In this document: in pieces, positions 5,493 through 51,023 of the stretch
Layout: the number at the start of each line of letters is the position of its first letter
How positions within the stretch are numbered: the stretch's first letter is position 1
NCBI GenBank assembly: GCA_041659765.1
Contig: JBAZXR010000001.1
Span: forward strand, 108,537 to 172,536
Origin: Patescibacteria group bacterium
GTDB lineage: Bacteria > Patescibacteriota > Patescibacteriia > UBA9934
Length of the DNA stretch: 64,000 nt
Direction: 5' to 3'
Translations under genes and position numbers: made by a program
Notes under the pieces: generated by a model
Database searches by the model: none
What the model saw: the letters and a program-made list of their open reading frames with translations, nothing else
What the model was told of the DNA's origin: nothing

Positions 5493-5579
5493 TGGTACCA
5501 CGGGAGGGACTCGAACCCTCAATCCCTTACGAGAAACGGATTTTGAGTCCGTCGCGTATACCATTCCGCCACCGTGGCA
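5493..5579 (-). tRNA. tRNA-Leu (anticodon CAA)
   Basis: 87 nt with a long variable arm, anticodon loop CTCAAAA and a G1-U72 wobble. Confidence 0.8.
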
Positions 5580-5642
5580 CAGATGGGGCACATGGTAGCA
5601 GAACTTAGTAAAAAGGCAAAGTATGTTAGAATATCCCCGACT

Positions 5643-6410
5643 ATGGTCCATGTAGTATCAGTTGTGAATCAAAAAGGAGGGGTAGGGAAGACCACCACGA
5701 GCATGAACTTGGCGGCTTTTTTGGCTGACTTTGGCAAACGGGTGTTATTGGTCGACCTCGACCCCCAGGGCAATGCCACGAGCGGACTCGGCTTCCAACC
5801 GTCTGAACTTTCGGGTACCTATGAGGTGCTCTCCGGCGAAAAGCAGATTCGGGATGTGATTATCCCCACTGCCCATGATCGACTATTCCTCTTGCCAGGA
5901 AATCCCGACCTCGCCGGCAGTCAGGTTGAGCTTGTGAACGAATTTAATCGCGAGCGAAAACTCCAGAATGCGATCGCGCCTCTGAAGGATGACTACGACT
6001 ACATTCTTGTGGATAACCCGCCGTCCCTCGGGCTCCTGACCATTAACGGTCTTGTGGCGAGCGATAGCGTGCTTGTTCCTGTGCAGGCGGAGTATTATGC
6101 TCTTGAAGGACTTGGCCAACTTTTACAAACCGTCGAGCTCGTAAAAACAAACATTAAGCCGGAACTTGCCGTCATGGGGGCAGTGATTACCATGTTTGAC
6201 CCGCGGACGAACCTGGCAAATCAGGTTTTGCAGGAGCTTTACAAGCATTTCCCCGGAAAGATCTTCCGCTCGGTCATTCCCCGCAGCATCAGACTCGCCG
6301 AGGCGCCAAGTTACGGTAAGTCCATCATCCACTACGATCCGCTGAGTAAAGCAGCTAAAGCGTATGAGCGATTGGCTCGTGAGTTCCTGGAACGTGAAAA
6401 AACCGACTAG
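5643..6410 (+). CDS. parA: Chromosome partitioning ATPase ParA/Soj
   Basis: Deviant Walker A KGGVGKTT. Start chosen at ATG 5643 (MVHVVSVVNQKGG...) to avoid overlap with tRNA-Leu; the track start at 5574 overlaps the tRNA. Confidence 0.85.
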   Translation: MVHVVSVVNQKGGVGKTTTSMNLAAFLADFGKRVLLVDLDPQGNATSGLGFQPSELSGTYEVLSGEKQIRDVIIPTAHDRLFLLPGNPDLAGSQVELVNEFNRERKLQNAIAPLKDDYDYILVDNPPSLGLLTINGLVASDSVLVPVQAEYYALEGLGQLLQTVELVKTNIKPELAVMGAVITMFDPRTNLANQVLQELYKHFPGKIFRSVIPRSIRLAEAPSYGKSIIHYDPLSKAAKAYERLAREFLEREKTD

Positions 6411-6447: not shown

Positions 6448-7353
6448 ATGAACAAAGCCAAAGGAGGTTTGGGCAGGGGACTTGGATCACTACTGTCGCC
6501 AATGAGCGTCCCTGTTCAAGCACCGAGTGCTCCAGCTCCCGCCGACTTCACACCGGAACCGATCGATGTAGTGGCCGAGGGTGATTTGCGTATCAAGCAG
6601 GTTTCACCGAAGGATATCGTCGAGAATCCCCGCCAGCCACGCCGGCATTTTGCTCAAGAGGAACTCGCAGAGCTTGAAGAGAGCATTAAAGAGCACGGCA
6701 TTCTACAGCCACTCATCGTCTCTGAAATTTCCCCTGGCAAGTACGAGCTCATTGCCGGTGAACGCCGTCTGCGCGCCTCACGCGGTCTTGGACTCGATAA
6801 GATTCCAGTGGTCATCAGGCCCATGGAGGATGACCGGAAGAAGCTCGAGCTCGCCTTGATCGAAAACATTCAGCGCTCAGACTTGAACCCCGTTGAAGAA
6901 GCACAAGCGTATCGCGCTTTGATTGAGGAGTTCGATCTCCGTCAGGAAGACGTAGCTAAGCGCGTCGGCAAGAGCCGTCCGGCTGTGGCTAACGCCTTAC
7001 GATTGCTTGAGCTCGACGAAGAGATGCTTCAGGCGCTCATCGATGGTCGCATCATGAAAAGCCACGCTCGCACCCTCATGGCCGAGCCCGTTCTCAGCCG
7101 CCGCCAGGCTATTTTTCAGGACCTCTTGAAAGGCGGCGTCACCGTTCGCGAGGTGGAGGCTCGTGCCGGTTCGGCCCGTAACCGCGCCCGCTACGCCAAA
7201 GACCCCAATATCGGCGCCCTAGAAATGGAACTCCGCGAAAAGTTCGGCACAAAGGTTACTATCGACATGCAGAACAGCGGGGGCAAGATTTCTATCTATT
7301 TTTACGCGAAAGAGGATTTGAAGAGCTTAGTTGAGAGATTAGCGAAAGACTAG
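6448..7353 (+). CDS. parB: Chromosome partitioning protein ParB/Spo0J
   Basis: N-terminal GLGRGLGSLL, ParB box GERRLRAS and an HTH region. Confidence 0.85.
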   Translation: MNKAKGGLGRGLGSLLSPMSVPVQAPSAPAPADFTPEPIDVVAEGDLRIKQVSPKDIVENPRQPRRHFAQEELAELEESIKEHGILQPLIVSEISPGKYELIAGERRLRASRGLGLDKIPVVIRPMEDDRKKLELALIENIQRSDLNPVEEAQAYRALIEEFDLRQEDVAKRVGKSRPAVANALRLLELDEEMLQALIDGRIMKSHARTLMAEPVLSRRQAIFQDLLKGGVTVREVEARAGSARNRARYAKDPNIGALEMELREKFGTKVTIDMQNSGGKISIYFYAKEDLKSLVERLAKD

Positions 7354-7380
7354 AGTTGTAAAGTTATAAAGTTGTAAAGA

Positions 7381-7406
7381 AAGAGGCTAATATTGGCCTC
7401 TTTTTT
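7381..7406 (+). terminator. Rho-independent terminator of parB (gaggc taatattg gcctc + T6)
   Basis: Stem-loop followed by a T-run 30 nt after the parB stop. Confidence 0.6.
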
Positions 7407-7417
7407 GTATTAAATCA

Positions 7418-7446
7418 TTGACAAAAGCCCATTTTTCTGCTATAAT
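7418..7446 (+). promoter_or_regulatory. Near-consensus sigma70-type promoter P1 (TTGACA - 17 nt - TATAAT) with a conserved spacer AAAGCCCATTTTTCTGC
   Basis: Exact -35 and -10 hexamers at 17-nt spacing. The spacer is shared with promoters at 7850, 50995, 52460 and 54315. Confidence 0.7.
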
Positions 7447-7490
7447 TTCTTGTCAGAGTAACTCCAACATTCATCTATCGGGAGAAGCCA

Positions 7491-7724
7491 ATGTTTCATA
7501 ACGTTGTTGAAGTGATGCCGCTCGCCCTCGGGCTTACCGTACTGCTCAGCGCCTCAATGACGACGATCTGTACTCTGTCGCCGCTTGCGACGGGTCGAAC
7601 GTGGGGATCGGCGATGAAGGAGATCGGGTGGCTGCTTCCGGGGTCCCATATTCACTTCTGCTACATGTTCGCAATCCTGATCGTGCCTACCGTACTCGGC
7701 GTCATCGTCGGATCCACTCGATAA
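7491..7724 (+). CDS. Small hydrophobic protein (2 TM), function unknown; higher-GC cassette gene
   Basis: 77 aa with its own promoter (P1), an SD GGGAGAAG and a terminator. It has a GC3-rich codon pattern unlike its neighbours. Confidence 0.5.
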   Translation: MFHNVVEVMPLALGLTVLLSASMTTICTLSPLATGRTWGSAMKEIGWLLPGSHIHFCYMFAILIVPTVLGVIVGSTR

Positions 7725-7776
7725 CCGCATCACTTGCAACTCTTTACGAAGAGCCGCAAGGGAGGTGCGGTTTTTC
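7724..7776 (+). terminator. Compound stem-loop followed by a T-run (aaccgca ... tgcggttttt)
   Basis: 7-bp outer stem with an internal hairpin and a T5 run directly after the stop of 7491..7724. Confidence 0.45.
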
Positions 7777-7849
7777 TATTAGCCTCGATACTTTTTCACC
7801 TTTTCAATCTTTTTAACTTTTTTATCTAGTATTAGCTTAATTTTCGTAT

Positions 7850-7878
7850 TATTCCATTGACAAAAGGCCATTTTTCTG
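7850..7878 (+). promoter_or_regulatory. Promoter P2 (TTGACA - AAAGGCCATTTTTCTGC - TATACT)
   Basis: Near-identical copy of P1 including the spacer. Confidence 0.7.
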
Positions 7879-7930
7879 CTATACTAGAAGGGTTTTCTGA
7901 TAGCAAATTTCACATCCTTTTGGAGGCATC

Positions 7931-8329
7931 ATGAAGAACTGCATTTGGTGTGGCGGGAGTCTCGTACCTGTGGACCTGCTCATCAACCAGCCGGAGAACC
8001 GTCGCCACTACTCGAACGCTGAGCTCATCGGATTCACTGATTCGAATGGGTTCCGTTGTGAGAACAGCGAGACATGCGGTGCGTTCTACTGTACGTCGCC
8101 GGGCGGTACCATTGAGGTCCTCGTGGGCAAGGCACGCTACGAACCGCTCAAGGACGGTGACTCGGACTACATCTGGGAGATCGTGGACTCGTGGACCATG
8201 TTCATTGACACCGAAGCCGGAAAGCGGGTCCTCGAAGACGTCCAAATCGAACGGGATTTCAAGCGGTACGGCACGATGGTTGATGACTGCTGGGACTTTC
8301 AAGATCTCGACGACTACGATCCTCTGTAG
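7931..8329 (+). CDS. Cysteine-rich (CxxC ... C ... C) acidic small protein, zinc-ribbon-like N-terminus, function unknown
   Basis: 132 aa (MKNCIWCGG..., FRCENSETCGAFYC) with an acidic C-terminus. It has its own promoter (P2), an SD GGAGG and a higher-GC codon pattern. Confidence 0.5.
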   Translation: MKNCIWCGGSLVPVDLLINQPENRRHYSNAELIGFTDSNGFRCENSETCGAFYCTSPGGTIEVLVGKARYEPLKDGDSDYIWEIVDSWTMFIDTEAGKRVLEDVQIERDFKRYGTMVDDCWDFQDLDDYDPL

Positions 8330-8338
8330 CGGTAACTG

Positions 8339-8388
8339 ACCGCACCCGAAGAGCCTCACCGGCCTTCGCGGTGCGGTTCTTCTTTTTA
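8339..8388. terminator. Bidirectional terminator between the cassette gene and the RSH gene (accgcacc ... ggtgcggt + T-rich)
   Basis: 8-bp stem with a large loop and a T-rich tail, between convergent stops. Confidence 0.45.
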
Positions 8389-8389
8389 T

Positions 8390-9868
8390 TTAACCCCTAT
8401 ACTTTTTAATAAGACTCGAAATGATGCCCGTCTTGGAGTCCTTGAGGGCGTCTTTTATTTTGTCGCGGGCGTGGCGGGTTTTTACAAATTTCAACCAATC
8501 CTCGTTCGGAAATTTTCGATTCTTATCCGTGATGATTTCGCAGAGGTCGCCGGATTTGAGGGGAGTTGAGAGCGATGCGATTTCGCCGTTGATGCGAGCC
8601 TGAACCGCTTTGTTGCCGATTTCGGAGTGTACCGAGTAGGCGAGGTCGACCGGTGTCGATTCCTCAGGAAGATCGAGCACGTCACCACGGGGAGTAAAGA
8701 CGAAAATGCGATCACGGAACATGTCGAGCTTGAGCTCGTTCAAGTGCTTCATGAAATCGCTCGCAGAAAGTTCTTTTTGAATAACGGCCAGCTCTTCCAT
8801 CCAGCGGACTTGGCGGGCTTTTTGATCGTCGCCGGACTTGTACTTCCAGTGTGCGGCCACACCGTATTCGTTTTCTTCGTGCATCTGGCGGGTGCGAATC
8901 TGAAACTCAAGGATCGAGCCCTCGTTGTCGAATACCGTGGTGTGCAACGACTGATAGCCGTTTGGCTTAGGTTGGGCGATGTAATCCTTAATGCGTCCAG
9001 GCAGCGGCGTGTACATGCCGTGAAGAATGCCGAGCACGGCGTAACATTCCGGAATGTCCTTCACGATTACTCGTAAAGCCACGATGTCATAGACTTTACC
9101 AATGTCCTGTTTGTAACGGTCCAGCTTACGGTGCAGCGAGTACGCGTGTTTGACGCGGCCATGGACGTCAGCACCCGTGATTCCATGTTTTTTGAGCTCT
9201 ACGTCAACATCGTGCAACGCGCGATCTAGCGCCGGTCCGAATTTTTTTACCCGCTCTTCCAGAAGATGCTGCGTCCAGCTGTACTCTTTTGGCTCTAGAT
9301 ATTTAAAAGCGTAGTCCTCAAATTCTCCGCGGTATTCACCCATGCCAAGGCGGTTAGCAATAGGCGCGTAGATTTCTAGAACTTCTTTGGCTATACGCTG
9401 ACGCTTGGCTTCTGGTAGGGCGTAAAGCGTTTCCAGGTTATGCAAGCGGTCCGCAAACTTGATAAAGATTACGCGGACGTCTTCCGCCATAGCCACGAAC
9501 ATTTTTCGGAGGTTTTCCGCGTAACGTTCCTCGCCTCTATATTTTACTTTTCCGAGTTTCGTAATGGCGCCCACCATGCTCCGGATGTCTGCGCCGAATT
9601 CCACTTCAATGTCGTCCAGCGTTTTTTCTGTGTCTTCCGGAACGTCGTGCAAGAGACCTGCGGCAATGACTTCGCTTGGCAGTTTCAGGTTTGCGAGTTT
9701 TGTGCCGACGTTTGCACAGTGCGCAAAGTATGGTTCGCCAGTGTGACGAGCCTGTCCCGTATGGGCCATCTTGGCAAAATCAAACGCGCGTTCAACTAAC
9801 CGGACATCCTCTTCGGAGTACCGGTCATCAAGCGCTGCACGTAAAGTTGAAAATTCTAGTTCAGGCAT
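8390..9868 (-). CDS. rel: RelA/SpoT-homologue (RSH) (p)ppGpp synthetase/hydrolase, short form (HD + synthetase domains only)
   Basis: HD motif (LLHDVPEDT) and a synthetase region (RVKHAYSLHRKL, YQSLHTTV). At 492 aa it lacks the TGS/ACT C-terminal half of long RSH enzymes. Confidence 0.8.
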   Translation of the reverse strand: MPELEFSTLRAALDDRYSEEDVRLVERAFDFAKMAHTGQARHTGEPYFAHCANVGTKLANLKLPSEVIAAGLLHDVPEDTEKTLDDIEVEFGADIRSMVGAITKLGKVKYRGEERYAENLRKMFVAMAEDVRVIFIKFADRLHNLETLYALPEAKRQRIAKEVLEIYAPIANRLGMGEYRGEFEDYAFKYLEPKEYSWTQHLLEERVKKFGPALDRALHDVDVELKKHGITGADVHGRVKHAYSLHRKLDRYKQDIGKVYDIVALRVIVKDIPECYAVLGILHGMYTPLPGRIKDYIAQPKPNGYQSLHTTVFDNEGSILEFQIRTRQMHEENEYGVAAHWKYKSGDDQKARQVRWMEELAVIQKELSASDFMKHLNELKLDMFRDRIFVFTPRGDVLDLPEESTPVDLAYSVHSEIGNKAVQARINGEIASLSTPLKSGDLCEIITDKNRKFPNEDWLKFVKTRHARDKIKDALKDSKTGIISSLIKKYRG

Positions 9869-10299: not shown

Positions 10300-12463
10300 T
10301 ATGGTTAAGAAGATGTCGAATATCGGCAGGGAACCCGTATGGCGCGGTTCCAATCGTGAGACGGAACCCGGCGAACCGGATGTATTAGAAGTGACAGAGG
10401 TGATTCATCGGCGAGATCTAAATACCTTAGCTCGGAAGCAGGAAGCTTTGGCTCGAGAGACGGATAATGAAAAAGAAACTGAACCATCCCTGGAGGGCGA
10501 GCTTTATGGACTTGAGCGTAGGGCGCGGATTTTGCAGGCTCACCGGCATGAACCAGCTGATTACGCTCATTTGCGGGAGCAGAAGAAGGCGCTGGCCAAG
10601 CGGATCAAGGGAGATAAAAAGTTAGAAGAACGACTTAGCCGAATCACGTTTAGCGAGATTGTTGGACAAGGCGAGCCGGTCGTGGGGCAAGATGTTGAAC
10701 GGCCTAGATCTAAGGAACTTGAACAGGCCGATTCGGCATATCGGGCCAAGCTAGATTATCTGGCTAACATGCTGGTTACCGTTGATCAGCTGCTTAATGC
10801 CGATGCTCCATCAAAAACAAAAATAAAAAAGATGCTGGATGGCGTGGTGAATGCGCTCGGCGGCGCTCATTTGACGTACGCGGCTGAGACGGAACGGGCG
10901 TTAACGAAGTCTTTGATTGAGCGGGCTGACATGCTGGCTAGAAAAATTATTCTTGATCAGCACCGGTTAGAAAATATTTTGGAAGTTGCACCAGCGCGGG
11001 AGACTAAGCTAAGAAAGCTTCCACGAAAAACGCGCCAAGGAAACCGAAAGAGGATATTGCCGGGGATGGTGCCAGAGCATTTACTTCGTACTGGCGTGAC
11101 ACTTCCGGAGAAACCAGACATCGCCCAGATCGTTCTTCCGTCTGAGGAGAGGCTAGGGAAGAAAACAGAGGGTTTTGGTGAGCGGTTGCGCCATGGTTTT
11201 GCATATTTATGGAATCGTGGGAAGCGTGAGGGCGCGGAGAAGGCTGAACTCAAGGAGATTGAGACATTCGGTGAAACCGCTAAGATGACTGCGGCCCTCG
11301 CGAGGACTGCGGTGACGTTTGGCGGTGCATATTTGGATCCGGAGCTCGTGAAACACATGCCCGCGTCTTTGTTGTCCAAAAAAGAAACTGAGCAGTTGGA
11401 ACTGATGCTGCGGGCTGTTGCGGAAGGTGGAACGAAGAGTCCGGATGAACAGGGGTATGACTCGTATAAGGAAGGAGTTCGCAGACTAGCAGAGCGCGTC
11501 AGTGCGTCGCGTTATGGTACGCCCAAAGAGAAGGGAAAAATTCTGGGGGACATCATGCGGGCAACCATTACTCCGCAGGATGATCGTACGCGTGCGGAGC
11601 GTGAACAACTCAAGGTTTCTGCTGAGCTTTTGACTAAGCCACGCGAGGAAATGACGAGCAATACGACACTTATTTTGGGTGAGCATTTGCTCCGCGCGCC
11701 AGCATATGACGGTGAGGCACTTATCGCTCGATTTAAAACTGTTGCGAGAGATGGTGCGACGGACGCAACGGCTCGCGAGCGCATTAGGAAATTCATCGCA
11801 GATCAGTTTGCGGAAACTGCTAAGACGTGGAACGGAGGCAGTACGAGACAGAAGGCATACGCAGGTCTGAAGACCATTGGGAAAGCGCTCGGTGCTGCTG
11901 GTTTTGCATATGCTACCCGCGAATTATGGGAAGTAATGCCGACGGTGGACACCTTAACGCAGGACGAGCTTCGCGTGCGGATTGACGACGCGCTTGAGGC
12001 TTCTGAAGCTCGCGATGACGTTCACGTGCTGCAGGAGCTTTCCGCTCATGAGGCGCTGTGGTCTGGTGCAGAAACGCTTGGCGAGCACGGGACCGTGAGC
12101 GTTCCCTTGGCTGAAGCGGAAATATCTGAATATTCTGCGGGGCAACTGGCGGCGGGCACGGTTAGGAAGGGCGATGGTATAACGCAGGCTTTGATCCGTG
12201 TGATTGCCGAGAACCCAAAACAGTTTGGCTATGTACACGACCAGTTGGCGTTTGATCTTAATGCCAGAAAACTCGCTCTTACGATGGTGAAGAATGACGG
12301 GCTCTTACGTACATGGCTGAATGATCAAGCCGTAGGGAATTTGCTAGTACTTCCGGTGATGAGATCGGACGGTTGGCATGTGGAGTTTTTAGACGCCAAG
12401 ACGCACGAGGAAATTTCTGGTAAAGCCTTGAAGGCATTTACAAAAGCACAACCGAGGCCTTAA
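10271..12463 (+). CDS. Large hypothetical protein (~720-730 aa, charged, predicted helical/coiled-coil)
   Basis: Long ORF with no recognisable catalytic motif. An alternative start at ATG 10301 lies 2 nt after the upstream stop. Confidence 0.5.
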   Translation: MMLLRELLNSMVKKMSNIGREPVWRGSNRETEPGEPDVLEVTEVIHRRDLNTLARKQEALARETDNEKETEPSLEGELYGLERRARILQAHRHEPADYAHLREQKKALAKRIKGDKKLEERLSRITFSEIVGQGEPVVGQDVERPRSKELEQADSAYRAKLDYLANMLVTVDQLLNADAPSKTKIKKMLDGVVNALGGAHLTYAAETERALTKSLIERADMLARKIILDQHRLENILEVAPARETKLRKLPRKTRQGNRKRILPGMVPEHLLRTGVTLPEKPDIAQIVLPSEERLGKKTEGFGERLRHGFAYLWNRGKREGAEKAELKEIETFGETAKMTAALARTAVTFGGAYLDPELVKHMPASLLSKKETEQLELMLRAVAEGGTKSPDEQGYDSYKEGVRRLAERVSASRYGTPKEKGKILGDIMRATITPQDDRTRAEREQLKVSAELLTKPREEMTSNTTLILGEHLLRAPAYDGEALIARFKTVARDGATDATARERIRKFIADQFAETAKTWNGGSTRQKAYAGLKTIGKALGAAGFAYATRELWEVMPTVDTLTQDELRVRIDDALEASEARDDVHVLQELSAHEALWSGAETLGEHGTVSVPLAEAEISEYSAGQLAAGTVRKGDGITQALIRVIAENPKQFGYVHDQLAFDLNARKLALTMVKNDGLLRTWLNDQAVGNLLVLPVMRSDGWHVEFLDAKTHEEISGKALKAFTKAQPRP

Positions 12464-15001: not shown

Positions 15002-16102
15002 TTACACGCGCTCATATCGTGTACCCCCGAGACTGCGCACAACACCCATGAGCTCGAGTTCGAGGAGCGCGCGCGACATGTCAGAAGCTGTCGAGCCTGT
15101 TTTGAGACATAGTTCATCGGCAAAGAGCGAGCTATGTTCGAGATAAGCGCAAATACTCCTATGAAAGGGAATAAGTTCAGGTAGAGGTTTCTTGAGTGCG
15201 ACGGGCTGTGGCGCAGGCGCGCCATCTGTTTTTCGCGGCGTAGCTATTCCAAAGGCTAAGAGGAGATCGTCGGGGCTCGTAGCTACGAACGCTCCATCTT
15301 TGATGAGATTGTTTGTTCCGGCCGAGGTGAGGGAATCAATCGGCCCCGGTACTGCAAAAACTTCTCGTCCAGCGTTAATCGCTGCGTGAGCGGTGAGGAG
15401 CGAACCAGACGGAAGACCGGCTTCCACAACGAGCGTGATTCTGCTCATGCCCGCAATAATTCTATTCCGCATGGGAAAGTGAAACCTGAGGAATGGCGAG
15501 TGAAGACCGTACTCCGTGACGAGCGTGCCTCCAGTTTCGATAATTTTTTCGGCGATATTTTCCTTGTCCATGCTGTTATGTGCGAGGAGCCCGCCGCCGA
15601 GGACGGCCGTAGTATGTCCTTTTGCTTCGATTGCACCCTTATGTGCAATGGTGTCAATTCCTAGCGCTAGCCCAGAGACAATCGACACACCGTGTGCGGC
15701 CAGTCCGTACGCAAAAGTTCTGGCGGTTTTCTTTCCGTATTCGCTGAGATTTCTGGAGCCGACAATAGAGACGCATTGTTCTCTCATTAACTCGCCCTGT
15801 ATAAACAGTGCGAACGGTGGGTCATAGATCGTTTTGAGAAGTGCAGGATATTCGGTATCATCTTTGGTGATGAGTCTGATACCGTGTTGTTCCATGCTTT
15901 TGACGTATACGTCGGGGCGGGCGGCTTGGCGGAACGTAAAAAATCCCGCCAGACGGGATTCGGGGATGCCGAGCTCAAGAAATTCGTGTTCGGGCGCTGC
16001 CCAGATAGCTTGCGCTGTCCCAAATTTGGCGAAGAGTTTTTCAAGTGTTCGCGAGCCAAAGACCGGACAGTTGGCGAGAGCGACCAGAAACGGATCCGTC
16101 AT
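15002..16102 (-). CDS. dprA: DNA processing protein DprA (Smf)
   Basis: Rossmann-like DprA core (GLALGIDTIAHKGA, VVEAGLPSGSLLTA) with a C-terminal winged-helix domain. Confidence 0.85.
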   Translation of the reverse strand: MTDPFLVALANCPVFGSRTLEKLFAKFGTAQAIWAAPEHEFLELGIPESRLAGFFTFRQAARPDVYVKSMEQHGIRLITKDDTEYPALLKTIYDPPFALFIQGELMREQCVSIVGSRNLSEYGKKTARTFAYGLAAHGVSIVSGLALGIDTIAHKGAIEAKGHTTAVLGGGLLAHNSMDKENIAEKIIETGGTLVTEYGLHSPFLRFHFPMRNRIIAGMSRITLVVEAGLPSGSLLTAHAAINAGREVFAVPGPIDSLTSAGTNNLIKDGAFVATSPDDLLLAFGIATPRKTDGAPAPQPVALKKPLPELIPFHRSICAYLEHSSLFADELCLKTGSTASDMSRALLELELMGVVRSLGGTRYERV

Positions 16103-23719: not shown

Positions 23720-23746
23720 TTCGTGGTAAAATGTGTGGGAGTTATG

Positions 23747-25471
23747 CTAAGCCGTTGGGCTCAGAATACGTTTGCAGTAATCCTTGTTATGGCAGGGGGC
23801 TTTTTATTTTCTGCGCCACAGGTTTTCGCTCAAGCTGATCAAACGGCTCAGGTGGCTGCTACGGCCGGGTTTGGGACAGCTGATCTACCGACTATTATTG
23901 GCCAGATCATCAGTGTTTTTCTGGGACTACTTGGCGTAGTTTTTCTGGTCCTGACTATTTACGCCGGCACCATGTGGATGACGGCCGCCGGTGATCCTAA
24001 GAAAGTTGAGAAGGCTAAGAATATTTTGATTCAGGCGGCCGTTGGGTTATTAATTACGATCAGTGCTTACGGAATCACCACCTTTATAGTCAATGCGATT
24101 ACGGGCGGAACTGGCGGCGGTGGGGGCGGGACAGGCGGTGGAAGTAATGGCGGAGTCTCGGTCGAGAGCCTGTCTGGTGCTTTGGGCGCCGGACCAATTC
24201 GCGACCATTACCCAACCAGAAATCAGACTGATGTGGCCCGGAACGCTAAAATAATGATTACGTTTAAGGAGGCCATTGACCCGGCCTCGGTGACGGTTAA
24301 TTCCGTGAAGATTTTCCCTGCCTCCACGGGTGTTACTGGTGCGCTCACGGACACGGTTATTAACTTTACAGACGATCACAAGACTTTTGTCTTTAGGCCG
24401 GCCGCCTATTTGGGCTCGCCGACCGCTAAGGTCCAGTACACCGTCCAATTAACTACTGACATTAAAAATGCCGGTGGTGCCAAGCTGTTCTCCGGCTCAT
24501 ACAGCAGTGGGTATAAGTGGTCATTTGAAACTGGCACGGTGCTTGATCTGACGCCGCCGACAATTGTGTCCGTTACTCCTGCTAACTCTGGCGCCTATGC
24601 TCGGAACATCGTAGTGCAGGCTACTTTTTCCGAACCGGTTGACCCAACTTCTGCTTCGGGCGTCCGAACATCTTCCGGAGGTTTCTCGAACATTGGGATT
24701 ACAAGTAATGCGACTGTGCAGGTGCCTGGCGAATATCAGATTTCCAATGGCTATACTTCTGTAACCTTCATCTCGGCTGAGCCTTGTGGCACTAACTCTT
24801 GCGGAGAAAAGATTGTCTGCTTGCCGGCTAGCAGCAGTTTGAATGTCACCGTTAAGGGTGCAAGTACTACGGCTAATCCTCCGCAGGCAGATACCTTTCC
24901 GTATGACGGTGTGGTAGACATGGCCGGTAATTCTTTTGATGGCAACCACGACGGCACGGCTGGAGACTTTTTTGGCTGGAGTTTTACGACCACCGGGGAT
25001 ATCGCGCTCGCGGGGCCAAAGATTGTGTCTGTTTCGCCGAATATTTCCGAAGAAGATGTGCCGCTTGATCAGCCGGTCACGATTACGTTTGGCGATGTCC
25101 TGATGACCTCTAGCGTTTCTCAAGACACAGTCCAGTTATCTAATAAAGAACAGGTGTCTGGCATTTCTCATGAAATGTGGTTTTCGCCGAGCACCTCCTA
25201 TTTGACGAGCGATGATCAGGTGGTGACTTCGGCTGCTCAGATTCCGGCCAAGACGGTGGTTGAAGTGACTCACGGAACGTTCTTGCAGTCGGTGGACGGC
25301 AAGTCATATTTGTATGGCTCGACAGTCACGAGTGGTTTGTTGAACCAGTATCAAAATTGTTATGTGCCCGGAGCGGGACCTGATGCGGTTGGCGGATTGT
25401 GCGGTGTGTCGGCCGCAGAGCCGTACTGCTGCAACGGTATCCCATCTTCCTCGGCTTGCATCCTCTTCTAA
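23747..25471 (+). CDS. Secreted surface protein with a TrbC/VirB2-like two-helix N-terminal anchor, Gly-rich linker and Ig-like (Big) domains
   Basis: Signal peptide, then two hydrophobic helices separated by GDPKKVEKAKN (VirB2/TrbC pilin-like), a G-rich stretch and beta-rich repeats. A TGnTAAAAT -10 precedes it and its stop abuts the giant gene. The track start at 23723 is possible. Confidence 0.65.
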   Translation, partial: LSRWAQNTFAVILVMAGGFLFSAPQVFAQADQTAQVAATAGFGTADLPTIIGQIISVFLGLLGVVFLVLTIYAGTMWMTAAGDPKKVEKAKNILIQAAVGLLITISAYGITTFIVNAITGGTGGGGGGTGGGSNGGVSVESLSGALGAGPIRDHYPTRNQTDVARNAKIMITFKEAIDPASVTVNSVKIFPASTGVTGALTDTVINFTDDHKTFVFRPAAYLGSPTAKVQYTVQLTTDIKNAGGAKLFSGSYSSGYKWSFETGTVLDLTPPTIVSVTPANSGAYARNIVVQATFSEPVDPTSASGVRTSSGGFSNIGITSNATVQVPGEYQISNGYTSVTFISAEPCGTNSCGEKIVCLPASSSLNVTVKGASTTANPPQADTFPYDGVVDMAGNSFDGNHDGTAGDFFGWSFTTTGDIALAGPKIVSVSPNISEEDVPLDQPVTITFGDVLMTSSVSQDTVQLSNKEQVSGISHEMWFSPSTSYLTSDDQVVTSAAQIPAKTVVEVTHGTFLQSVDGKSYLYGSTVTSGLLNQYQNCYVPGAGPDAVGGLCGVSAAEPYCCNGIPSSSACILF

Positions 25472-25477
25472 AACATT

Positions 25478-28400
25478 GTGAACATAAACCGCTTAAAACA
25501 CTTGGTTGTCGGGTTACTCGTCGCTACGAGCTCGGCTTTGCCGTTGGCTTTGCCAATGATCGCTTCCGCGCAGACGGACACGGTGACGAGCGGGCTTGAG
25601 ACCGTGGGTACAGCTACTGGTTTAGGAAATGAGGATCCGCGGATTATAGTGGCGAGAATTATTAGAGTAGTGATTTCTTCGCTCGGCGTAATCGCCGTGG
25701 TTATTGTTCTTTACGGCGGTTTCGTCTGGATGACCTCGGCTGGCAATGAAGAGAAGGTGAGTAAAGCTAAGAAGATTTTGTTGAGCGGCGGTATCGGTCT
25801 AATGATTATTCTGATGTCATGGTCCATCACCACCTTCATTATTAGTTCACTTTTGAGTGCAACTGGCGGTGGTGGTGGCGGTTCTGGCGGCGCAGGTGAC
25901 GGTGTAGGCGGAACTAGTCTGGGTGGCGGTTCTGGCAGTGGCTTTGTAGTAACCGGTATTGTTCCTAAGGGTGAGGTGACGATTAGAAATGTGCAGGTTC
26001 GTGTAACATTCTCGAAGAATGTTGATCCTGCAAGCATTGCTAACGCCTTTACGGTTAAAAATACCCTGACGGGTGCAGTCATTGCTGGTACGCCATCTGT
26101 TTCCGGAAACACCATTACTTTCAAACCTAGCACGCCTTGTTCGGACGCGGCACCAGCTCCGCTTTGTTTTGACGCGAGCACTCAGTTTACGGTCACCATG
26201 ACTACGGCCATTAAGAGTACCTCGGCGGTTGCTTTGACGTGTCCGACTAGCCGTCCCTGTGCTGGCAGCTTCACGACTGGAACTATAGTCGACGAGGTTC
26301 CGCCAACAGCTTTGATTACTGACCCTGACGCTGGACAGCGCGTGCCAGCCAATAGCTTTCAGAACGTTCAGGTGGTTGGTACTGATGATGTTGGTGTCGC
26401 TAGTGCTACCTTCTTGGCCGGTACTGTCAGTTTTGACGAAGTTCCGGCTACCGGAGCGGATCTCACGAGCGTAACAATTAGCGCTGATTGGGATACGAGC
26501 AACGAGGATGCTGGAAACTCGGTAAAATTGTCTTCCACTATTACTGACCTGGCTGGTAACACGGCTGAAGACTCAGTTGGGGTGCTCTTAGCACCAGCTT
26601 CATGCCAAAATAACGTCTTAGATTCCGGCAGTGGAGAAACGGGGATTGATTGTGGCGGTGATCCGACTAGCGCGAACTATTGTGGCGCGTGTGACGGCTC
26701 GGCTTGTACTTCTTCTACTGATTGTCAGTCCGGTTCTTGTGTGAGCGGTGTTTGTCGGGCTACGACCGTTATTAGAGCGGTTTCGCCATTGTCGGGTGCG
26801 CCTGGTACTTACGTCACAATTTCTGGTAATTCTTTTGGGGCAACGCCGGGCAAAGTTTTGTTTGTTGGTCCGGGCGCGCCAGTTGAGGCGGTTCTAGCTC
26901 CGTGTGCTGATGGTTGGACAGACCGCCAGGTAGTAGTCATGGTGCCGCCAGGTCCGGCTGGAACTGGTCCGATTACTATTGTGCGAGCAAATGCGGTAGA
27001 TGATTTTGATAAGGATTTAACTAATGATAATCGGGGTCCGCTCATTGCTAACTTCGTCGTGAACACGGTGGCGCATCCAAATCTGTGTGGTCTTTCGGCT
27101 ACCAGTGCCAAAGCTGGCGATTCGCTCACGCTTACCGGATCCGGTTTCGGCGCTAGTCGAGGGACTTCGGTAGTGGCCTTTGGTAGTAATCGTCCCGCCT
27201 CCACCTATTCGTCATGGTCTGATTCTTCCGCTCAGGTAGTGGTGCCGGTCGTAGCCTCTCGTGATGGCTCGTACGCTGTACATGTGGTTTCCGACGCCGG
27301 CATTTCGTCGAATAGCATTAGCTTACGCTTTACCTCGGCCGCTTCTTCTGGCGGATCTACAACCTCAGGTGGGACAACTACGCCGGGAGGCGTGACTACA
27401 CCAGGCGGGACTACTACTCCCGGTGGAACCACAACTCCAGGCGGAACCACTACGCCTGGCGGTTCAGCCGCCTCTGCACTTGTTCCGTCGCTCGTTTCGA
27501 TTGATCCTGGTCAGGGTGGAATAGGGCGTTACGTTAGTTTGACGGGCACAAATTTTGGTTCCGCTAAGGGGATTGTCAAGTTCACTAATACCGCGACCGG
27601 CGATACTGCGGTGGCTAGCTTGGATGTTTCTGCAGCCTGCGGTGCGGAAAACCCATGGGGTAACACGCTGATCAGATTTGTCGTTCCCGGCACCTATACA
27701 AATGGCACGGCCATCGCGGTCGCCGCACATACTGTGTCTATCACCTCAGCCAGTGGCCAGATTTCTAATACTGTTCCATTTACTATAATCGCTGATGATA
27801 CAAGACCGAATGTGTGCGGAATCGTGCCCGCTACTGGCCAGGCCGGGGATACGATAAAAATTGTTGGCGATCGGTTTGGCTCAACCAATGGCGCGGTTAC
27901 TTTTTCGTCGAGTGTGACTTCAGTCATCACCTCTTGGAGTAATACCGAAGTCAAAGTGACCGTTCCGGCCAGTGCTCAGAGCGGCAGTGTCACCCTAGCC
28001 AACGCCGCCGGAGTAAAAGGTAACAATGTTTATTTCAGCGTGGCTTCGCCTACTTCATCGGCTGGCGCGGTGGGCGGCGGCTATGCTTGGAGTTTTTCTT
28101 CCGGTTCCATTCCTAAAGTTCCAAGTTTGGTAACTGAGTGTTCGGCTTCGGTCGTTTCTGCTGTGCCGAATAACCGGTTTACGGACTCGGTTTGTACCAA
28201 TGCTGTGGTGTATGCCGAATTCACTCAGCCGATGAACCAGGCCACAGTGCAGGGTGCGGTGAAGGTTGACCGCTGTACCGGCGAAGGCTCTAACCCGTGT
28301 TCTTCGGTGATGGCGGTGACAGGTCAGACGCTCACTACTTTAAAATCTTTTACTTTTACGCCAAGCACGCCGCTGGCTATAAGTTCAACTTACCGCGTGA

Positions 28401-31400
28401 CCGTGGCCGCTACGGCTGAATCCGCCGATGGGGCAACTTTGGCTAGAGACGCTGAGTGGACTTTTGTGACAGCATCAACTAATACAGCTTGTTTAGTTGA
28501 TAGTGTCAGAGTGTCACCGGCCAAGGCGACTATTAACGTAAAGAACGGGACGGAAAGCTTCTCGGCCCTGCCGACGGCTGGTTGTGTGGTGCTTGACCCA
28601 GCTGGGGTTGAGTGGGATTGGGCACTGAATCCTAGTTTTGCGGCTCGTAATACAACGGCCAATCCGTCCTGTGTGGGCGGGTCTACGGCTTGTTTGACTG
28701 CTGAGGCTTTGGCCGAGGGTGTGACACCGGTCACGGCCACGGTGAGCAATACAGCGACAAACAGTTCAGCTAGTTTGACAATCGAGTTTACAGATCCGTA
28801 CGTCACCGGCGTTTGGCCTGATTGTGACGCCGCCTGCATGAACGCACAGATTGGGGCGAGCTTTAACATTCCAATGAATAAGCAGAGTCTTGAGGCCTCG
28901 GGGAACGTTCGGCTGTTTGAGTGTACAAACGAACTTTGCTCCGCTACTTCAGAGATTACGAGCCCGGACGCTAGATGTATGACGGTGACCGGTCAGTCTC
29001 CTGAGTGTACGGGCTTCGCCTTGAAGACCGTTACGCTCAACCCCGGTAAGTTTTATAAAGCACGGATTAGCGGCTCGGTTAGAAGCGTAAGCGGGGTGCC
29101 GTTGACTAGAACTAATGACGGAGGCGATTATTCTTGGGTGTTCCGCGCTCGGGAAGACGCTAGTGCTTGCGTGGTCAGCCGAGTTTCTATTTCTCCGGCC
29201 ACTGCTCTAGCCAAGGCGGTTGGTGACAAAACAACCTTTACGAGTACGGCCTTTGGCGAAGCTGATAGCTGTTCACAGTCTGGTCAGCGACTAACCGGCT
29301 TCTCTTACTCATGGACCTGGGCCAACCCGATTATTGATGAGGATCTGGATAGCAATCCGGCTACTAAAGTAGCAGAGTGGCTAGGTTCTTCACTTCGAGA
29401 CACTTCTCCTTCAGCTATTCCATCTGCCTGCTCCGCATCATGTACTCCTGGTGGCAGCGTGCCTTATGAAGCGATTTGCGGTGACGGGGTGCTTGATCTT
29501 ACAGGCGGCGAGGAATGTGAAGATGGCAACGTGGCCAATGGCGACGGTTGTTCAGCTTCTTGTTTGCATGAGGGGACTAGCGCGCCAACTTGTGGCAACG
29601 GCCTTATTGATACCGCCGAGGATTGCGATGACCGTAATCTGATTGATGGTGACGGTTGTTCAAATAGGTGTCAGTCCGAAGGTTCGCGCTCAGTTGGCGC
29701 AACCTGTGGAAATAATGATATCGCTCGTAACGCCACCACAAAAGCTGGCGAAGAATGTGATGATAGTAACGCTAAAAATGGTGATGGCTGTTCTTCCAAC
29801 TGTACCAATGAGGGGACACCGTCATTAGCGTCTATCGGCGGGGCGGTTTGCGGTGACCGCGTAGTCAACATACCGGGCGAGGGTTGCGACGATGGAAACA
29901 TTATTAACGGCGATGGTTGTTCGTCGGTTTGTTTGCATGAAGGCTCGCTTACGACTTGTGGAGTTGGCGGGGTTGACGCTGGCGAGGATTGTGATGATGG
30001 AAACGGGTTGAACGGTGACGGCTGTTCCTCCAGATGTTTGTTTGAGGGCTCTTCGGTGGCTTACTCGCTGCCATCTTTCTGTGGCGATGGCGTGGTTGGA
30101 ACGGGCGAATATCCGGCCTGCGAAGCTGGTGTAACAGGTGACGGTCGAATTGATCCTTTGCAAACCGCCATCATCAGTAGTGATGCAGCTTTTGAGGTAG
30201 ACTTGGCGACCAAGCGGGCGCACGCTACGGTTGAGGTTAAAGAAAACTCCTCTGGTCTATCTACTACCGCTGATCTTTCTTTGTCGTGCGTAGCCACCTC
30301 TGATGCCAGCTGTTCGGACCCTGCTCACAACGGCGTCGGTTCAGCTAGCTGCTGCATGCCACGGCCAACGGTGACGCTGATCCCAACCTCTGCTTCTACA
30401 ACCTGCCGTAATCCGGCCTTGTACGGTATCTTTTCTCAGAAGATGGATCTAGAATCATTTACTACTACCAACACTGACAGAGCGCTGACGGTTGAGACTG
30501 ACCACTTGTACCTGCAACTGGACTTGCCGGCTACCACTGCTCTTCCTGGAATGCCAGGTTCTGAGATTAGGTGTCCAAGTGGGTATCGCGTAGCTTTTGG
30601 TCATGATCCAAAGGGCTTCTTAGCTCGGGCAAAAAATACCATCGTTCGCTTCTTCGTTGGTGATTCAGCAGTCGCCGCGGAAGGTAAATGCTTGCTGCCG
30701 GTTACTGGCTACGAGCAGGTTGAACAGGACGATGGAACGTACAAAATTTATCTAAAATACGCTAAAGCGCTTGAGCCAAATGCGTCTTATACCCTTGTGG
30801 TTGATGGTGATCCAAATGTTCAAGATGGAGTAATAGTTGGAGTTACTTCAGTTTCAGGTGTTGGTTTGAACGGCACGGCCTCGTCTACATTTAGAACTGG
30901 CCCGAACCTATGTTCGTTAGATGAGGTCAAGGTGACCGACAACTACCGTGCGTCGCCCTACCTCTTTACGCGGGGTGATGAGGTGCATGCGTTTACGGCT
31001 GCAGGTATTTCTCATACGAATGGCCTAATTCAGGAAATCCAACCGATTCTCGGAGTCTACGATTGGGATTTTGATAAATGGAAGATTGCTGATGAGACCC
31101 TGTTTGGAGTGTCAGCTATCGGACCCAATATTCCTCATGACACTGTTGATATTAAATCCTTAGCGAAAAACGGCTCGACGAGTCTTTCAGCGCAGGCCAC
31201 TATTGGAGCAGACACGTTTGGCGGCACGACAGGCAAGAAAGTGATCGGTTCGACTGGGATAACGGCATTTTTATGTGAGAATCCTTGGCCGCCTCTACCT
31301 AAGTTCCCGTGGTCTGATGACCCGGCGGGCGAAGCTAACGGACTCGCATCGCAGGGGACTGAGGGCTGGATGAACATTTCTAGTTATTACTGTCGCGATC

Positions 31401-34400
31401 AGGGAGCGGTGGGCGTAGCTGCTGATCTGCCGACTGTTACGCCGGTTCGTCCGCCGGTAGCCGGAACTTCAAATATTATCAAGCAATACTTGTTTGAGGT
31501 GAGTGATGGTTCTGGCGACGCAATCGGCCTTCGAGTGGTGAGCAATCCGGGCTACCTCTCGCCGATGGCTTGGTATCGGGCTCAGAACTTCAAGGGCGGT
31601 CCCAAGGAGACTGTAGTGGATGGTTTTGCGGCGGTACAGGACGGCAGTACGGTGTATGTGGCTGCTCCTAACTATGCCAATGGCAAGTTCTATTCCAATA
31701 TCTACGTTTTGTCTGCCAATGAGGGGGCGAACGAAGCGACGCTAAAGATTTTTGCGAGCATGCTTGAGAATCTTAAGTTTGCGATTGACCTGAATGACGT
31801 GACTGTCTGTACTATTGGCGGATCCTTGTCGGATACAAGCTGCTCTTCGGATGATGATTGTCTGGCTCTTGGGGCTGGTGCAGTTTGTCCGTCTTTAAAG
31901 GCGAAGGTGCGCCGTGATACTCAGAGACTATCTGATTTGACGACTATCCGTTCAGCTATTACAGCCTACGGCGTGGATAATAGAGTATGTTCCATCACCA
32001 GGTCTCAGTCTTGCGCTTCAAATATTGAATGTCCGGTTGGCGAGTCCTGCGCATCAATTATTCCGGCGCTGTCTGCTGGAACCTTCGTGCGCAATTTCTC
32101 TGCTAGCCCGTGGACTAGCTGGGGCGACATGCTGGGTGGCGCGCTTGGCGCGAAGGAACTGCCAGTTGACCCGTTGAATGCCTTCACACCTAATACTTGC
32201 GGAGTAGTGGGTGGGCCATTAGCTAGTTTTGATCAGGCCAACTGCGTTGACCAGTCAAAGGGAACGTATACATGTCCGTTTGGTTCTCACGTGTACCAGT
32301 ATTTGGCGCAGGGAGACAGCTCGGTGAAACTATCGGCTAACCTTGAATTCTTTGAGGTGTGGGCTAGTCCAATTGATAATAATGGTTCGGCCGATGGAGT
32401 GGATATTACAGTTGGTAGAGCTAACGTGTCGGCTGATGGCTTTAGCACGGGGGACGTATGTTCAGGCGCGGTGCTTGGCAGTTCTGCCGTTTGCGGCGAC
32501 GGCGTAGTGGGCAGTGGCGAGGCCTGTGAACTTGGTCAGCGTGAGACTACAGTCGCCATCTGTGATGGTAATAATGATGGAATTATTGATGGTTTCAAGA
32601 CCAGGGTTTGTAATTCATCCTGTACCGCTTTTGTGGATGATCCTCAAGCCGTCTGCGTTTCACCTACTTGCGGGAATGCGGTCAAAGAGGGTTCTGAAGA
32701 GTGCGATGACGGTTCAAAAAATGGCTCGTACGGTTTCTGTGGAGCTGACTGTAGACGAGCCAGCGCCTTCTCTTGCGGAGATGGCTCTTTGGCCGGTGGC
32801 GAGAAATGTGATTGTGGCTCAAGCGGATCTCTGACTGGTCGTCGGGCTAATGGCAACGGCATCTGTCAGGTTTATAACGGCGTGTATCAGTCCAGTCCTT
32901 CAGCCTCATGTGCTTGGGATTGTTCCGGTCCAGCGCCATACTGCGGCGACAAGCATGTTGATAGCGGCGAACAATGCGATGGTACAGATGAGTTCTGGGA
33001 CGGAAAGTTGTGTTCAAGCGGCTCGCTGATTGGCCAGCCATGTACATCTGACAGTATGTGCGGAACCGCTGGCTTATGTGGCGGAACTAGCGCCTATGCG
33101 GCTTGTCCGGTCGGGGAGACGCGCACTCATGATTGTAATGACGCCGTGGGTGCTAGCTGTGCCTACTCAAATACTTGGCTAGCTGCTACCTGCGTCAGGG
33201 TAGGAACTTGCGGAGATGGTGTTGTCCAGAGCGGTCTAGAGCAGTGTGACGACGGAAATCAAAATGACACTGACGCCTGCACTCATTTGTGTAAGGTTAA
33301 CGTTTGCGGTGACGCTGCTCTTAACCCGCAGACAGAAGAATGTGACCTGGGCACGCAGAACGGCGGTTCTTGCAGCTCATCTTACGGCTCTACTTGCACC
33401 GCTTGTTCTGTGACCTGCCGCAACGTTATTTCATCCGGCGCGTTCTGTGGTGACGGCGTGAAGAATGGCACGGAGTTCTGTGATGGTTCTGACGTGCCAC
33501 TGACTTACTTCGATTCTGCCACCATGAAGGCCGGTGGGTCATGTGCTACGGACGGGGCAACGTCCAGCATTTATACCTGTCGTAGTTTAGGCGTGTGTAA
33601 CGGTGGAGCTAAGAATGGTCAGCTCTGTACAGCCGGATATATTGGTAGCACTGGTCCTGATTCCTACGCTCTTGATGTAGCTGACTGTACAGATTTAACC
33701 GGCAGTTACGAATGCGTTAAGCCGGCTTGTTCCGGTACTTGTTCTTCCTCCTGCCCGCTAACCTTTGCTAGTACCAGCTTGCTCATGACAGCTAATCAGC
33801 CAGGTTCGCGCCCAAGCCCAAGTGTCGATCTCTACTCGTACAACACGAGCTCTACCTCAACTCTGCCCAACGCGGCTACTATTACGGTTCCTGCTTGTAC
33901 GGTATTGCCCTCGGTTTCCGCGAACATCCGTTACGCCGAGAACTATGAACCACCGCAGGTGTACGTGATGTTCATCACTGATCTTTCGCAAACGATGAAA
34001 TACCGGGTCCGTGACGATGTTCTTCCTGGTTCAGGCGAAAAATCTCGGTTGGCTGTGGCGCAGGCTTCCATGGACTCAGCAACTGCAAGTTTGTATGAGA
34101 AGTTTGGTGCTAACGTGCATATCGGTTCGATCGGCTTCAAAGGTTTGGCGCAAGGAACTTGCTACAATAAAACCAACACATCCTGCACGGCGGGGACGGC
34201 TGCGGGCGATACTACTTGTTCAAACTTAACTCCGGGTGACTTCTGCTTGGACAAAACATCTCAGATTTCTGCTTCAACTATTACCTATCCGTTCGGTGAT
34301 ATCTATAGCTATAAGCTTGCTGATAGCACGGGGGCGTATTCGTTCGCTGATCAGCCGCAGATGTCTTCGCTAGTTTCGGCTATTGACTCAATGTTCGTTG

Positions 34401-43682: not shown

Positions 43683-43735
43683 TTAAAAAAAGAAGTCGGA
43701 GATCCGCGTGGGGATCTCCGACCGTTACGTTCTGG

Positions 43736-45175: not shown

Positions 45176-45245
45176 GGTCCACCTCAGAGTGAAAAAGGAC
45201 GCAAGTCGCGCCCAAATGGTTATTGGGCAGTTGACTTGACCGCCA

Positions 45246-45275
45246 ATATTAGCAACAAAAAAGTGATTTTGTCAA
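45246..45275 (-). promoter_or_regulatory. Promoter for the 45175 gene (minus strand: TTGACA - 18 nt - TAATAT), related to the shared promoter consensus
   Basis: Reverse complement reads ATTGACAAAATCACTTTTTTGTTGCTAATAT. Confidence 0.55.
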
Positions 45276-50994: not shown

Positions 50995-51023
50995 TTGACA
51001 AAAGCCTGTTTTTTTGCTATTAT
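50995..51023 (+). promoter_or_regulatory. Promoter P3 (TTGACA - AAAGCCTGTTTTTTTGC - TATTAT)
   Basis: Copy of the shared promoter. It is preceded by CGGACA-type direct repeats (50967..50988). Confidence 0.65.

Follow-up and report, generated by a model that had tools for sequence, protein, structure and literature searches.

Two small transcription units between parB and a RelA/SpoT homologue gene in Patescibacteria as probable moron-like gene cassettes

Phage morons of the HK97/HK022 type, as outlined by Cumby, Davidson & Maxwell (2012; PMC3594210), carry their own promoter and terminator, are inserted between genes that are adjacent in relatives and show deviant GC content. Putative mobile promoters (promoter reuse), as presented by Nijveen, Matus-Garcia & van Passel (2012; PMC3575422), are highly similar promoters located upstream of non-homologous genes, both within and between genomes, and the term 'minimal mobile elements' is in use for Neisseria in at least some of the literature (PMC1797815; PMC3787668). 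Here we describe two small units at positions 7380-8390 of a 64,000-nucleotide (nt) stretch, hereafter the window, of a Patescibacteria metagenome-assembled genome (contig JBAZXR010000001.1) from an uncultured, ultrasmall bacterium; in the genome collection, its closest relatives carry the label Candidatus Uhrbacteria. Similarly to a moron, each unit consists of a single open reading frame (ORF) with its own promoter and factor-independent terminator; the units sit between parB and the gene for a RelA/SpoT homologue (RSH), which are 10-80 nt apart in three related loci (L005, L007 and L009); and the GC content at third codon positions (GC3) of the cargo departs from that of the surrounding genes. 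Four of the five features of morons are found in this locus, the lacking one being residence in a phage.

The region appears to be a two-unit, co-oriented array of autonomous, moron-like single-gene cassettes that circulate among Uhrbacteria-like Patescibacteria and are exchanged by recombination at their promoter and terminator modules, a reading to which we assign a probability of roughly 60%. It is carried by the anatomy of the units, the hotspot that they occupy, constant modules with swapped cargo, the recurrence of one cassette at several sites and the arrays in which junctions are repeated, all of which are directly observed. A cassette consists of a promoter module of ~60-70 nt (a GCTAATATTAGC-like palindrome, TTGACA, a T-rich 17-nt spacer and TGnTATAAT), its own leader with a Shine-Dalgarno (SD) sequence, one GC3-rich ORF, and a terminator module (a hairpin with a CCGCAYC...GGTGCGG base followed by a U-run).

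Anatomy of the locus and variability of the parB/RSH site

As the first-pass annotation had proposed, two co-oriented promoter/SD/ORF/terminator units are located between the convergent parB and RSH genes; this observation is confirmed for 7380-8390, with all promoters, SDs, ORFs and terminators assigned to positions (aa, amino acids; UTR, untranslated region):

5574-6410: parA, left of parB
6448-7353, plus strand: parB, the conserved left flank of the insertion hotspot
7377-7406, plus strand: parB terminator hairpin AAAGAAAGAGGCTAATATTGGCCTCTTTTTT, fold -16.5 kcal/mol, z -5.6
7387-7446, plus strand: unit 1 promoter module with palindrome, -35 TTGACA (7418-7423), T-rich spacer and TGC-TATAAT (7441-7446)
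7447-7490, plus strand: unit 1 5'UTR with SD GGGAG (7480-7484), as read from the sequence
7491-7724, plus strand: orf77, 77 aa, two hydrophobic segments, GC3 0.69
7723-7775, plus strand: terminator module T1 (ACCGCATCAC...GGTGCGG and U-run), -24 kcal/mol, z -3.4, CCGCAYC...GGTGCGG family
7779-7796, plus strand: 18-nt copy of the RSH 3' end, L002 allele type (TTAGCCTCGATACTTTTT), 17/18 against the L002 RSH end
7826-7885, plus strand: unit 2 promoter module with TAGTATTAGCTTA palindrome remnant, -35 (7857-7862) and TGC-TATACT (7880-7885)
7886-7930, plus strand: unit 2 5'UTR with SD GGAGG (7922-7926)
7931-8329, plus strand: orf132, 132 aa, GC3 0.74
8338-8388, plus strand: terminator module T2 (ACCGCACCCGAAGAGCC...GGTGCGGTTCTTCTTTTT), -29.4 kcal/mol, z -4.7
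8390-9868, minus strand: RSH, 492 aa, with HD, RelA_SpoT and TGS domains; convergent with parB and conserved as the right flank of the hotspot

Between 5 and 11 kb, the two highest-scoring sigma70-type sites are those of the units (7418-7446, TTGACA-17-TATAAT, scoring 12/12; 7857-7885, 11/12); both are TG-extended, lie inside a 58-nt direct repeat (83% identical) and have in common a 27-nt core of which the 64 kb contain only these two copies (0 expected). The SDs are located 6 nt (unit 1) and 4 nt (unit 2) upstream of ATG 7491 and ATG 7931, respectively. The loop and 3' arm of the parB terminator contain the GCTAATATTGGC palindrome that forms the left edge of unit 1, and similarity to the units of L002, the closest relative of the window (ParB 93%, RSH 95% identical), starts within this hairpin; at the other end, T2 stops 2 nt short of the RSH stop codon. 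Both units are present identically in a separate short-read assembly (Logan SRR18595301, L001). Three tRNA genes are found near parA/parB/RSH, and scpA, scpB, a D-Ala-D-Ala carboxypeptidase gene, topA, dprA and pth lie farther out; these surroundings are core chromosome and not a prophage. Immediately after the parB stop, there are three tandem 8-nt repeats (GTTGTAAA, GTTATAAA, GTTGTAAA; 7351-7379) that are absent in L002 and L003. A simple tandem duplication is ruled out as the origin of the two units because the cargos are unrelated and the interval between T1 and the unit 2 promoter consists of the RSH-end remnant and unrelated sequence.

The product of orf77 contains two hydrophobic segments (approximately residues 5-27 and 53-75), matching the two-transmembrane peptide of the first-pass annotation, and our best guess is a small inner-membrane peptide. 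A word-indexed search of 5.8 billion proteins returned self-matches only; the gene call is present in the JGI and Logan sets and there is no NCBI protein. The alternative that unit 1 is a small RNA gene and orf77 a chance ORF draws on this lack of homologues, the apparent absence of an orf77 call from the NCBI annotation, the marginal GC3 excess (p about 0.02) and a 24-nt imperfect inverted repeat (7495-7518/7727-7750, 71% complementary) that ties the first codons of orf77 to the 5' arm of T1 and could reflect either long-range mRNA pairing or chance. We nevertheless consider a small RNA gene very unlikely: the SD is correctly spaced, orf77 occupies precisely the stretch between promoter and terminator and its stop runs into the first bases of the hairpin, the hydrophobic segments are clean, GC at the first, second and third codon positions is 0.54/0.46/0.69, and an L002 unit of the same chassis also encodes a membrane-anchored peptide (81 aa). 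In addition, Rfam yields no match in this region of the window (best 23.7 bits against a gathering score of 50).

The parA-parB pair with convergent RSH is syntenic in eight related loci. The first-pass annotation treated the units as an insertion, and the orthologous parB-RSH regions of close relatives (L002, L003, L005, L007 and L009) indeed do not carry the same genes. The spacers are as follows:

Window, about 1 kb: two small units
L002, about 1 kb: two small units, unlike those of the window
L003, 341 nt: no substantial ORF
L004, about 380 nt: 88-aa ORF on the other strand
L005, about 10 nt: no content
L006 and L008, about 2.8 kb: reverse transcriptase, small helical accessory protein and target-like gene
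L007, about 60 nt: plain bidirectional terminator
L009, about 80 nt: plain bidirectional terminator

The spacers of only 10-80 nt in L005, L007 and L009, together with the other inserts elsewhere, identify the parB/RSH site as variable. Among these inserts, the one in L006 (2112-4954) and L008 (1769-4484) encodes a reverse transcriptase (330/334 aa), a four-helix accessory-like protein (114/123 aa) and a 246-/217-aa gene product with a Gly/Trp-rich C-terminus, and can be read as a putative diversity-generating retroelement. In the L003 spacer (10850-11190), a promoter-like TTGTGG-16-TAAAAAT and a terminator accompany ~170 nt of structured sequence; no ORF is convincing, and the spacer may encode a small RNA; Rfam gives nothing near threshold for this spacer.

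Constant modules around exchanged cargo

The comparison of unit 1 with unit B of L002 separates constant ends from an exchanged interior. The promoter cores are 29/29 identical (L002 11525-11553; 54/60 when the upstream palindrome is included) and the terminators 71/74, whereas the 275 nt in between (leader, SD and ORF) cannot be aligned, the leader included, and the 77-aa peptide shows no similarity to the 81-aa membrane-anchored peptide of unit B. At the same time, parA, parB and RSH are only about 80% identical between the window and L002 at the DNA level. Modules that are far more conserved than the adjacent essential genes, around unrelated cargo, argue against vertical descent or convergence of signals; with 93-97% identity against about 80% for the flanking genes, the modules rather than these genes would be the recombination arms. 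The sequence ATTAGCCTC flanks both L002 units on either side. Between the window's units, the 18-nt copy of the RSH end differs in its synonymous codons from the true RSH end at 8390-8407 and probably represents a recombination scar at this junction.

The second unit offers the same picture from the side of the cargo. A word-indexed search retrieves only orf132 itself, and the family was found by a full phmmer search against 1.84 billion representatives, which yields ten relatives of this rare family; two giant repeat proteins among the matches (P0003, cadherin-like, and P0011, MBG/TPS) were judged to be spurious low-complexity or repeat matches. The common part is an N-terminal domain of ~90 aa with invariant C7, G8, P21, A30, L32, G34, G40, C43 and W82, and the acidic tails of the members are mutually unrelated. 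The existence of relatives with a conserved domain indicates that orf132 is a real protein-coding gene. On Patescibacteria-like contigs, the family occupies at least four chromosomal contexts, including, besides the parB/RSH site:

L142 and L144-147: after the gene for the transketolase C-terminal subunit
P0002 contig and L148: adjoining ileS (IleRS)
L143: between uppS and a tRNA methyltransferase gene

Common to all copies are the promoter type (the unit 2 promoter module can be aligned with those of the homologues), a related leader and, right after the stop codon, one and the same terminator (CCGCACCC..GAAGAGCC..GGTGCGGTTCTTCTTTT), and the similarity among these cassettes ends at the U-run. 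Family members have a GC3 of 0.74-0.90 and lie in contigs with 49-59% GC. Six other leaders (L141, L142, L143, L144, L148 and L149) contain a 5' stem-loop of 8-9 bp that is missing from the window (7886-7930) through a deletion of ~12 nt. In the hand-named stem, 87.5% of the cells are paired compared to 8-62% in slid controls, with only two compensatory pairs, and RNAalifold finds no consensus 5'UTR structure in the automatic alignment; conservation of the stem-loop is suggestive only. Downstream of the cassette in L142 (6676-7226) come a gene for a RelB-type antitoxin (98 aa) and an ORF of 85 aa, so that a toxin-antitoxin pair shares this variable site with a member of the orf132 family.

The orf132 protein has six cysteines, 26 acidic (D+E) against 12 basic (K+R) residues and an isoelectric point of 4.2, in line with its earlier description as a Cys-rich acidic protein with a CxxC motif. 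It is composed of a beta-rich N-terminal domain with a CxxC...C-x5-C layout (residues 1-94) and an acidic, helical or disordered tail. No known family had been recognized for either protein, and Pfam, PHROGs and PADLOC likewise give no match for orf77, orf132 and both L002 cargos (a sub-threshold ROKNT match was discarded), yet orf132 has the small family of its own described above. Structure prediction, which had been suggested along with the annotation, results for orf132 in a model with a predicted local distance difference test (pLDDT) score of 80, beta-rich in residues 1-94 and helical in residues 95-114, that has no structural neighbour in PDB or BFVD. The NCBI model (MFA5946522.1, 119 aa, 'Patescibacteria group bacterium', on an 897-kb contig) begins at codon 14 of orf132 and loses the CxxC; the family alignment and the GGAGG SD identify ATG 7931 as the true start of the 132-aa protein. 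Our best guess is a cytoplasmic zinc-ribbon protein whose fast-diverging acidic tail would bind a basic partner. Both orf77 and orf132 can be inferred to be accessory, strain-specific proteins.

The first-pass annotation had further considered orf77 and orf132 as one two-gene system, a toxin/immunity or secreted-peptide pair. The two genes are indeed adjacent, small and strain-specific, both have strong promoters and one encodes a membrane peptide, but this suggestion did not hold up and such a pair now seems quite improbable. A strong terminator divides the genes into separate transcription units, and they are neither co-transcribed, nor antisense-coupled, nor conserved together as expected of a toxin-antitoxin system: the promoter scan found no antisense promoter in unit 1, none of the orf132 homologues in the examined contexts has an orf77-like neighbour, and orf77 is without any homologue. 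Orf132 shows no hydrophobic signal segment at its N-terminus, which opens with the conserved CxxC (judged by eye, without a predictor), and the family searches against PADLOC, Pfam and PHROGs are empty for both.

Arrays with repeated junctions are best seen in L050, a metagenome contig found solely through the promoter pattern. Located between ileS and a ruvA/femAB block, it contains three co-oriented units with unrelated cargos of 150, 125 and 54 aa (GC3 0.73-0.79 against 0.48-0.56 in the neighbours), in which the 139-nt terminator-promoter junction is repeated at 95% identity; its promoter, palindrome and terminator belong to the same families as those of the window. The same ileS site is used by two other units in L148 and by six small ORFs, one of them an orf132 homologue, in the P0002 contig. 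The order within a junction is the CCGCAYC...GGTGCGG base, the U-run, the ATTAGC palindrome and TTGACAAAAG..TGnTATAAT. Among nine aligned terminators from five unrelated cargos, the lower stem CCGCAYC/GGTGCGG is invariant (9/9) and the upper stem is variable and partly covarying; across the loci compared, this terminator family is joined to at least seven unrelated cargos, and a second, related type (GCGCATC...GGTGCGC) is present in L002 unit A and one L149 unit. In nearly every cassette, a GCTAATATTAGC-like palindrome that resembles the extended -10 (TGCTAATAT) is located 30-45 nt upstream of the -35 element (window 7386-7399 and 7828-7838; L002 10909-10924 and 11497-11508; also L050 and L141-L149); it may serve as operator, second promoter or recombination core.

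These data also bear on the view that the units are ordinary, vertically inherited lineage-specific genes subject to differential loss, their signals being similar by convergence with no mobility involved. In its favour, the pattern is a common one, with near-consensus promoters of this kind in at least 120 metagenome contigs, and hairpin terminators are generic. However, both the junction (139 nt, 95% identity) and the terminator (74 nt, 96%) include positions with no known signal role and lie beside genes that are only 80% identical; the same cassette occurs in four unrelated contexts; the empty sites are plain bidirectional terminators; and the modules are less diverged than the core genes, albeit on a small sample. 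Simple vertical inheritance is very unlikely.

Composition and distribution of the promoter type

The GC3 of orf77 (0.69) and orf132 (0.74) exceeds that of parB (0.61), RSH (0.58) and the 38 host ORFs of the window (0.549 +/- 0.045, maximum 0.665), which bears out the GC3-rich codon usage reported in the first-pass annotation, strongly for orf132 and marginally for orf77. None of the 2263 host windows of 133 codons reaches the value of orf132, compared to 2.4% of same-length windows for orf77, whose excess, taken alone, is only marginal. The codon shifts (CTC, TCG, ATC, AAG, TAC, TTC and AAC) parallel those of a high-GC island at 51-55 kb. Six of the seven window ORFs with GC3 of at least 0.665 are preceded by the promoter type of units 1 and 2, which is found upstream of island genes at 50995, 52460 and 54315 and of a gene at 45275 on the minus strand. 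These related features, located outside the locus, are:

43694-45275, minus strand: promoter TTGACAAAATCAC..TGCTAATAT at 45275, 479-aa ORF (43736-45175), terminator (43723-43694)
50995-54975, plus strand: high-GC island of three units, ORFs 51188-52381, 52672-54225 and 54385-54921, GC3 0.82-0.91

The 479-aa ORF (GC 0.59, GC3 0.67) has no Pfam match, and its terminator contains a 12-bp stem. The GC content of the island is 62-66%, and its products are lipoprotein- or secreted-like, and one of them contains MopE-type metal-binding repeats; a weak similarity (26%, E 0.006) connects the GC-rich 178-aa lipoprotein (54385-54921) with the neighbouring 176-aa lipoprotein (55091-55621), whose composition is host-like. 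The description of the two units as the island genes in miniature thus stands for promoter type and codon bias but not for the terminators, which, in the island and in the gene at 45275, fall outside the CCGCAYC...GGTGCGG family. Elsewhere in the window (23723-35020), a 3180-aa ORF and two TSP3-repeat proteins come after a 582-aa protein with T4SS-pilin and Big_5 domains, an arrangement that looks like a surface or secretion-related gene block.

Across the loci compared, cargo GC3 is 0.60-0.90 against 0.39-0.56 in neighbouring genes. A 21-base promoter pattern, TTGACAAAAGNCNNNTTTTNTGCTAT, is present in at least 120 metagenome contigs and in nine viral contigs; 28% of the genes located right after it exceed their neighbours by more than 0.15 in GC3, compared to 6.7% of the other genes in the same loci (Fisher p = 1.6e-4, with crude gene calls). 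In L028 (3900-4650), a block of ~600 nt and ~60% GC, consisting of a consensus promoter, an AT-rich leader of 150 nt, a 153-aa ORF (GC3 0.83) and a strong terminator, lies within a contig of ~32% GC, and its sequence recurs in a viral contig (L135, IMG/VR); GC3-rich ORFs after the same promoter pattern are also found in L021, L068, L081 and others. Searches of the phage collection (50,697 records; blastn and tblastn) and of the plasmid collection gave no match. A scan of IMG/VR for the terminator tail gave 23 matches, all of them to unrelated coding sequence with no hairpin and attributable to chance.

Routes of exchange and comparison with known systems

If these units are mobile cassettes, their gain, loss and replacement would proceed by RecA-type homologous recombination, with the promoter and terminator modules, or the whole terminator-promoter junction, serving as short homology arms. 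The incoming DNA could arrive by natural transformation or as circles excised between junction repeats; such circles would each carry one cargo with one junction, and a single crossover could place them in any other junction; this would account for the common orientation within arrays. Once inserted, each gene would be transcribed alone from its near-consensus promoter and insulated by its own terminator. No integrase or transposase family is matched among the 41 window ORFs scanned or in the L050 flanks, DprA is encoded 7 kb from the locus (15002-16102), and natural competence has been demonstrated in Saccharibacteria, another lineage of Patescibacteria (PMC10633639). Together with the homology over whole modules, these observations make homologous recombination plausible.

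The alternative is an integron-like, site-specific system in which a recombinase encoded elsewhere acts at the GCTAATATTAGC-type palindrome or at the base of the terminator hairpin. The lower stem that is invariant in all nine units under a variable upper stem, the palindrome at the edge of homology of nearly every unit, the common orientation of the arrays and the bracketing of both L002 units by ATTAGCCTC are all compatible with such a system. We regard this serious rival as unlikely, given the lack of any integrase or transposase match in the ORFs and flanks scanned, the absence, by inspection, of attC-type RYYYAAC/GTTRRRY ends from the terminator, the promoter carried by every cassette, and the extent of the homology between units, which covers whole modules of 60-140 nt and not a short core.

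Several points weigh against exchange of mobile cassettes by homologous recombination. The mechanism is deduced from patterns in sequences, with no recombination event or intermediate observed, and the sample is small, with about 12 loci that contain the terminator family. Arms of about 60-75 nt are short for RecA-dependent exchange, and the invariant lower stem and the palindrome could be sites of a dedicated recombinase or regulator encoded elsewhere. The interval between T1 and the unit 2 promoter is not a clean junction repeat; it contains the RSH-end remnant and about 30 unrelated nt. Translation of orf77 has no support from homologues and the expression of both units is predicted only; finally, high GC3 could result from selection instead of foreign origin.

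A bolder proposal, possible but doubtful in our judgement, is that the cassettes belong to a previously undescribed, integron-analogous gene-cassette system of Patescibacteria built on portable promoter and terminator modules. The exchange site would be the terminator-promoter junction, used via RecA or via a recombinase that recognizes the CCGCAYC/GGTGCGG stem or the ATTAGC palindrome; the system would feed GC3-rich, expression-ready ORFs to hotspots at the 3' ends of housekeeping genes, and the high-GC islands (51-55 kb) would be its larger products.

Patescibacteria have tiny, streamlined genomes, and the gain and trial of genes in this group are poorly understood. If the units are mobile cassettes, expression-ready, insulated genes at tolerant sites would explain the fast turnover of strain-specific small proteins beside essential genes; among the cargo proteins, many resemble membrane proteins, lipoproteins or zinc-ribbon proteins. 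The consistently high GC3 of the cargo still lacks an explanation and is testable. The genetics of Patescibacteria has only recently begun, in naturally competent Saccharibacteria, as that same source presents it (PMC10633639). The promoter and terminator modules would be ready-made, naturally validated expression parts, and the parB/RSH site is a candidate neutral landing site.

Compared to morons, the locus differs in its host, a bacterial chromosome with a housekeeping site (parB/RSH) and no phage matches. Near-identical modules around unrelated cargos and arrays with repeated junctions are outside the moron concept. The likeness to integrons includes co-oriented arrays of single, unrelated and mostly uncharacterised ORFs, a recurring structured 3' element and content that varies between close relatives. 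However, no IntI, attI or attC signature is found (41 window ORFs and L050 flanks; attC by inspection, with no dedicated model), and each cassette has its own strong promoter and a true terminator, whereas integron cassettes are promoterless and depend on a common Pc promoter. The recurring element, moreover, is a terminator-promoter junction of 140 nt, which points to homologous and not site-specific exchange. Minimal mobile elements, which Saunders and Snyder are said to have defined in 2002 as different genes between the same conserved flanking genes across strains, resemble the locus in the alternative genes between the same conserved flanks in relatives, the lack of mobility genes and a lineage with natural transformation; here, by contrast, the arms are apparently the cassette's own modules instead of the flanking genes, and the same cassette is found at several sites. 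The identity of the window and L002 promoter cores before unrelated ORFs, with the same pattern in L050, is what is seen in mobile promoters, but in this case the promoter is coupled, across the cargo, to an equally conserved terminator and the cargo is consistently GC3-rich. The locus therefore extends the idea of promoter reuse by a linked, conserved terminator.

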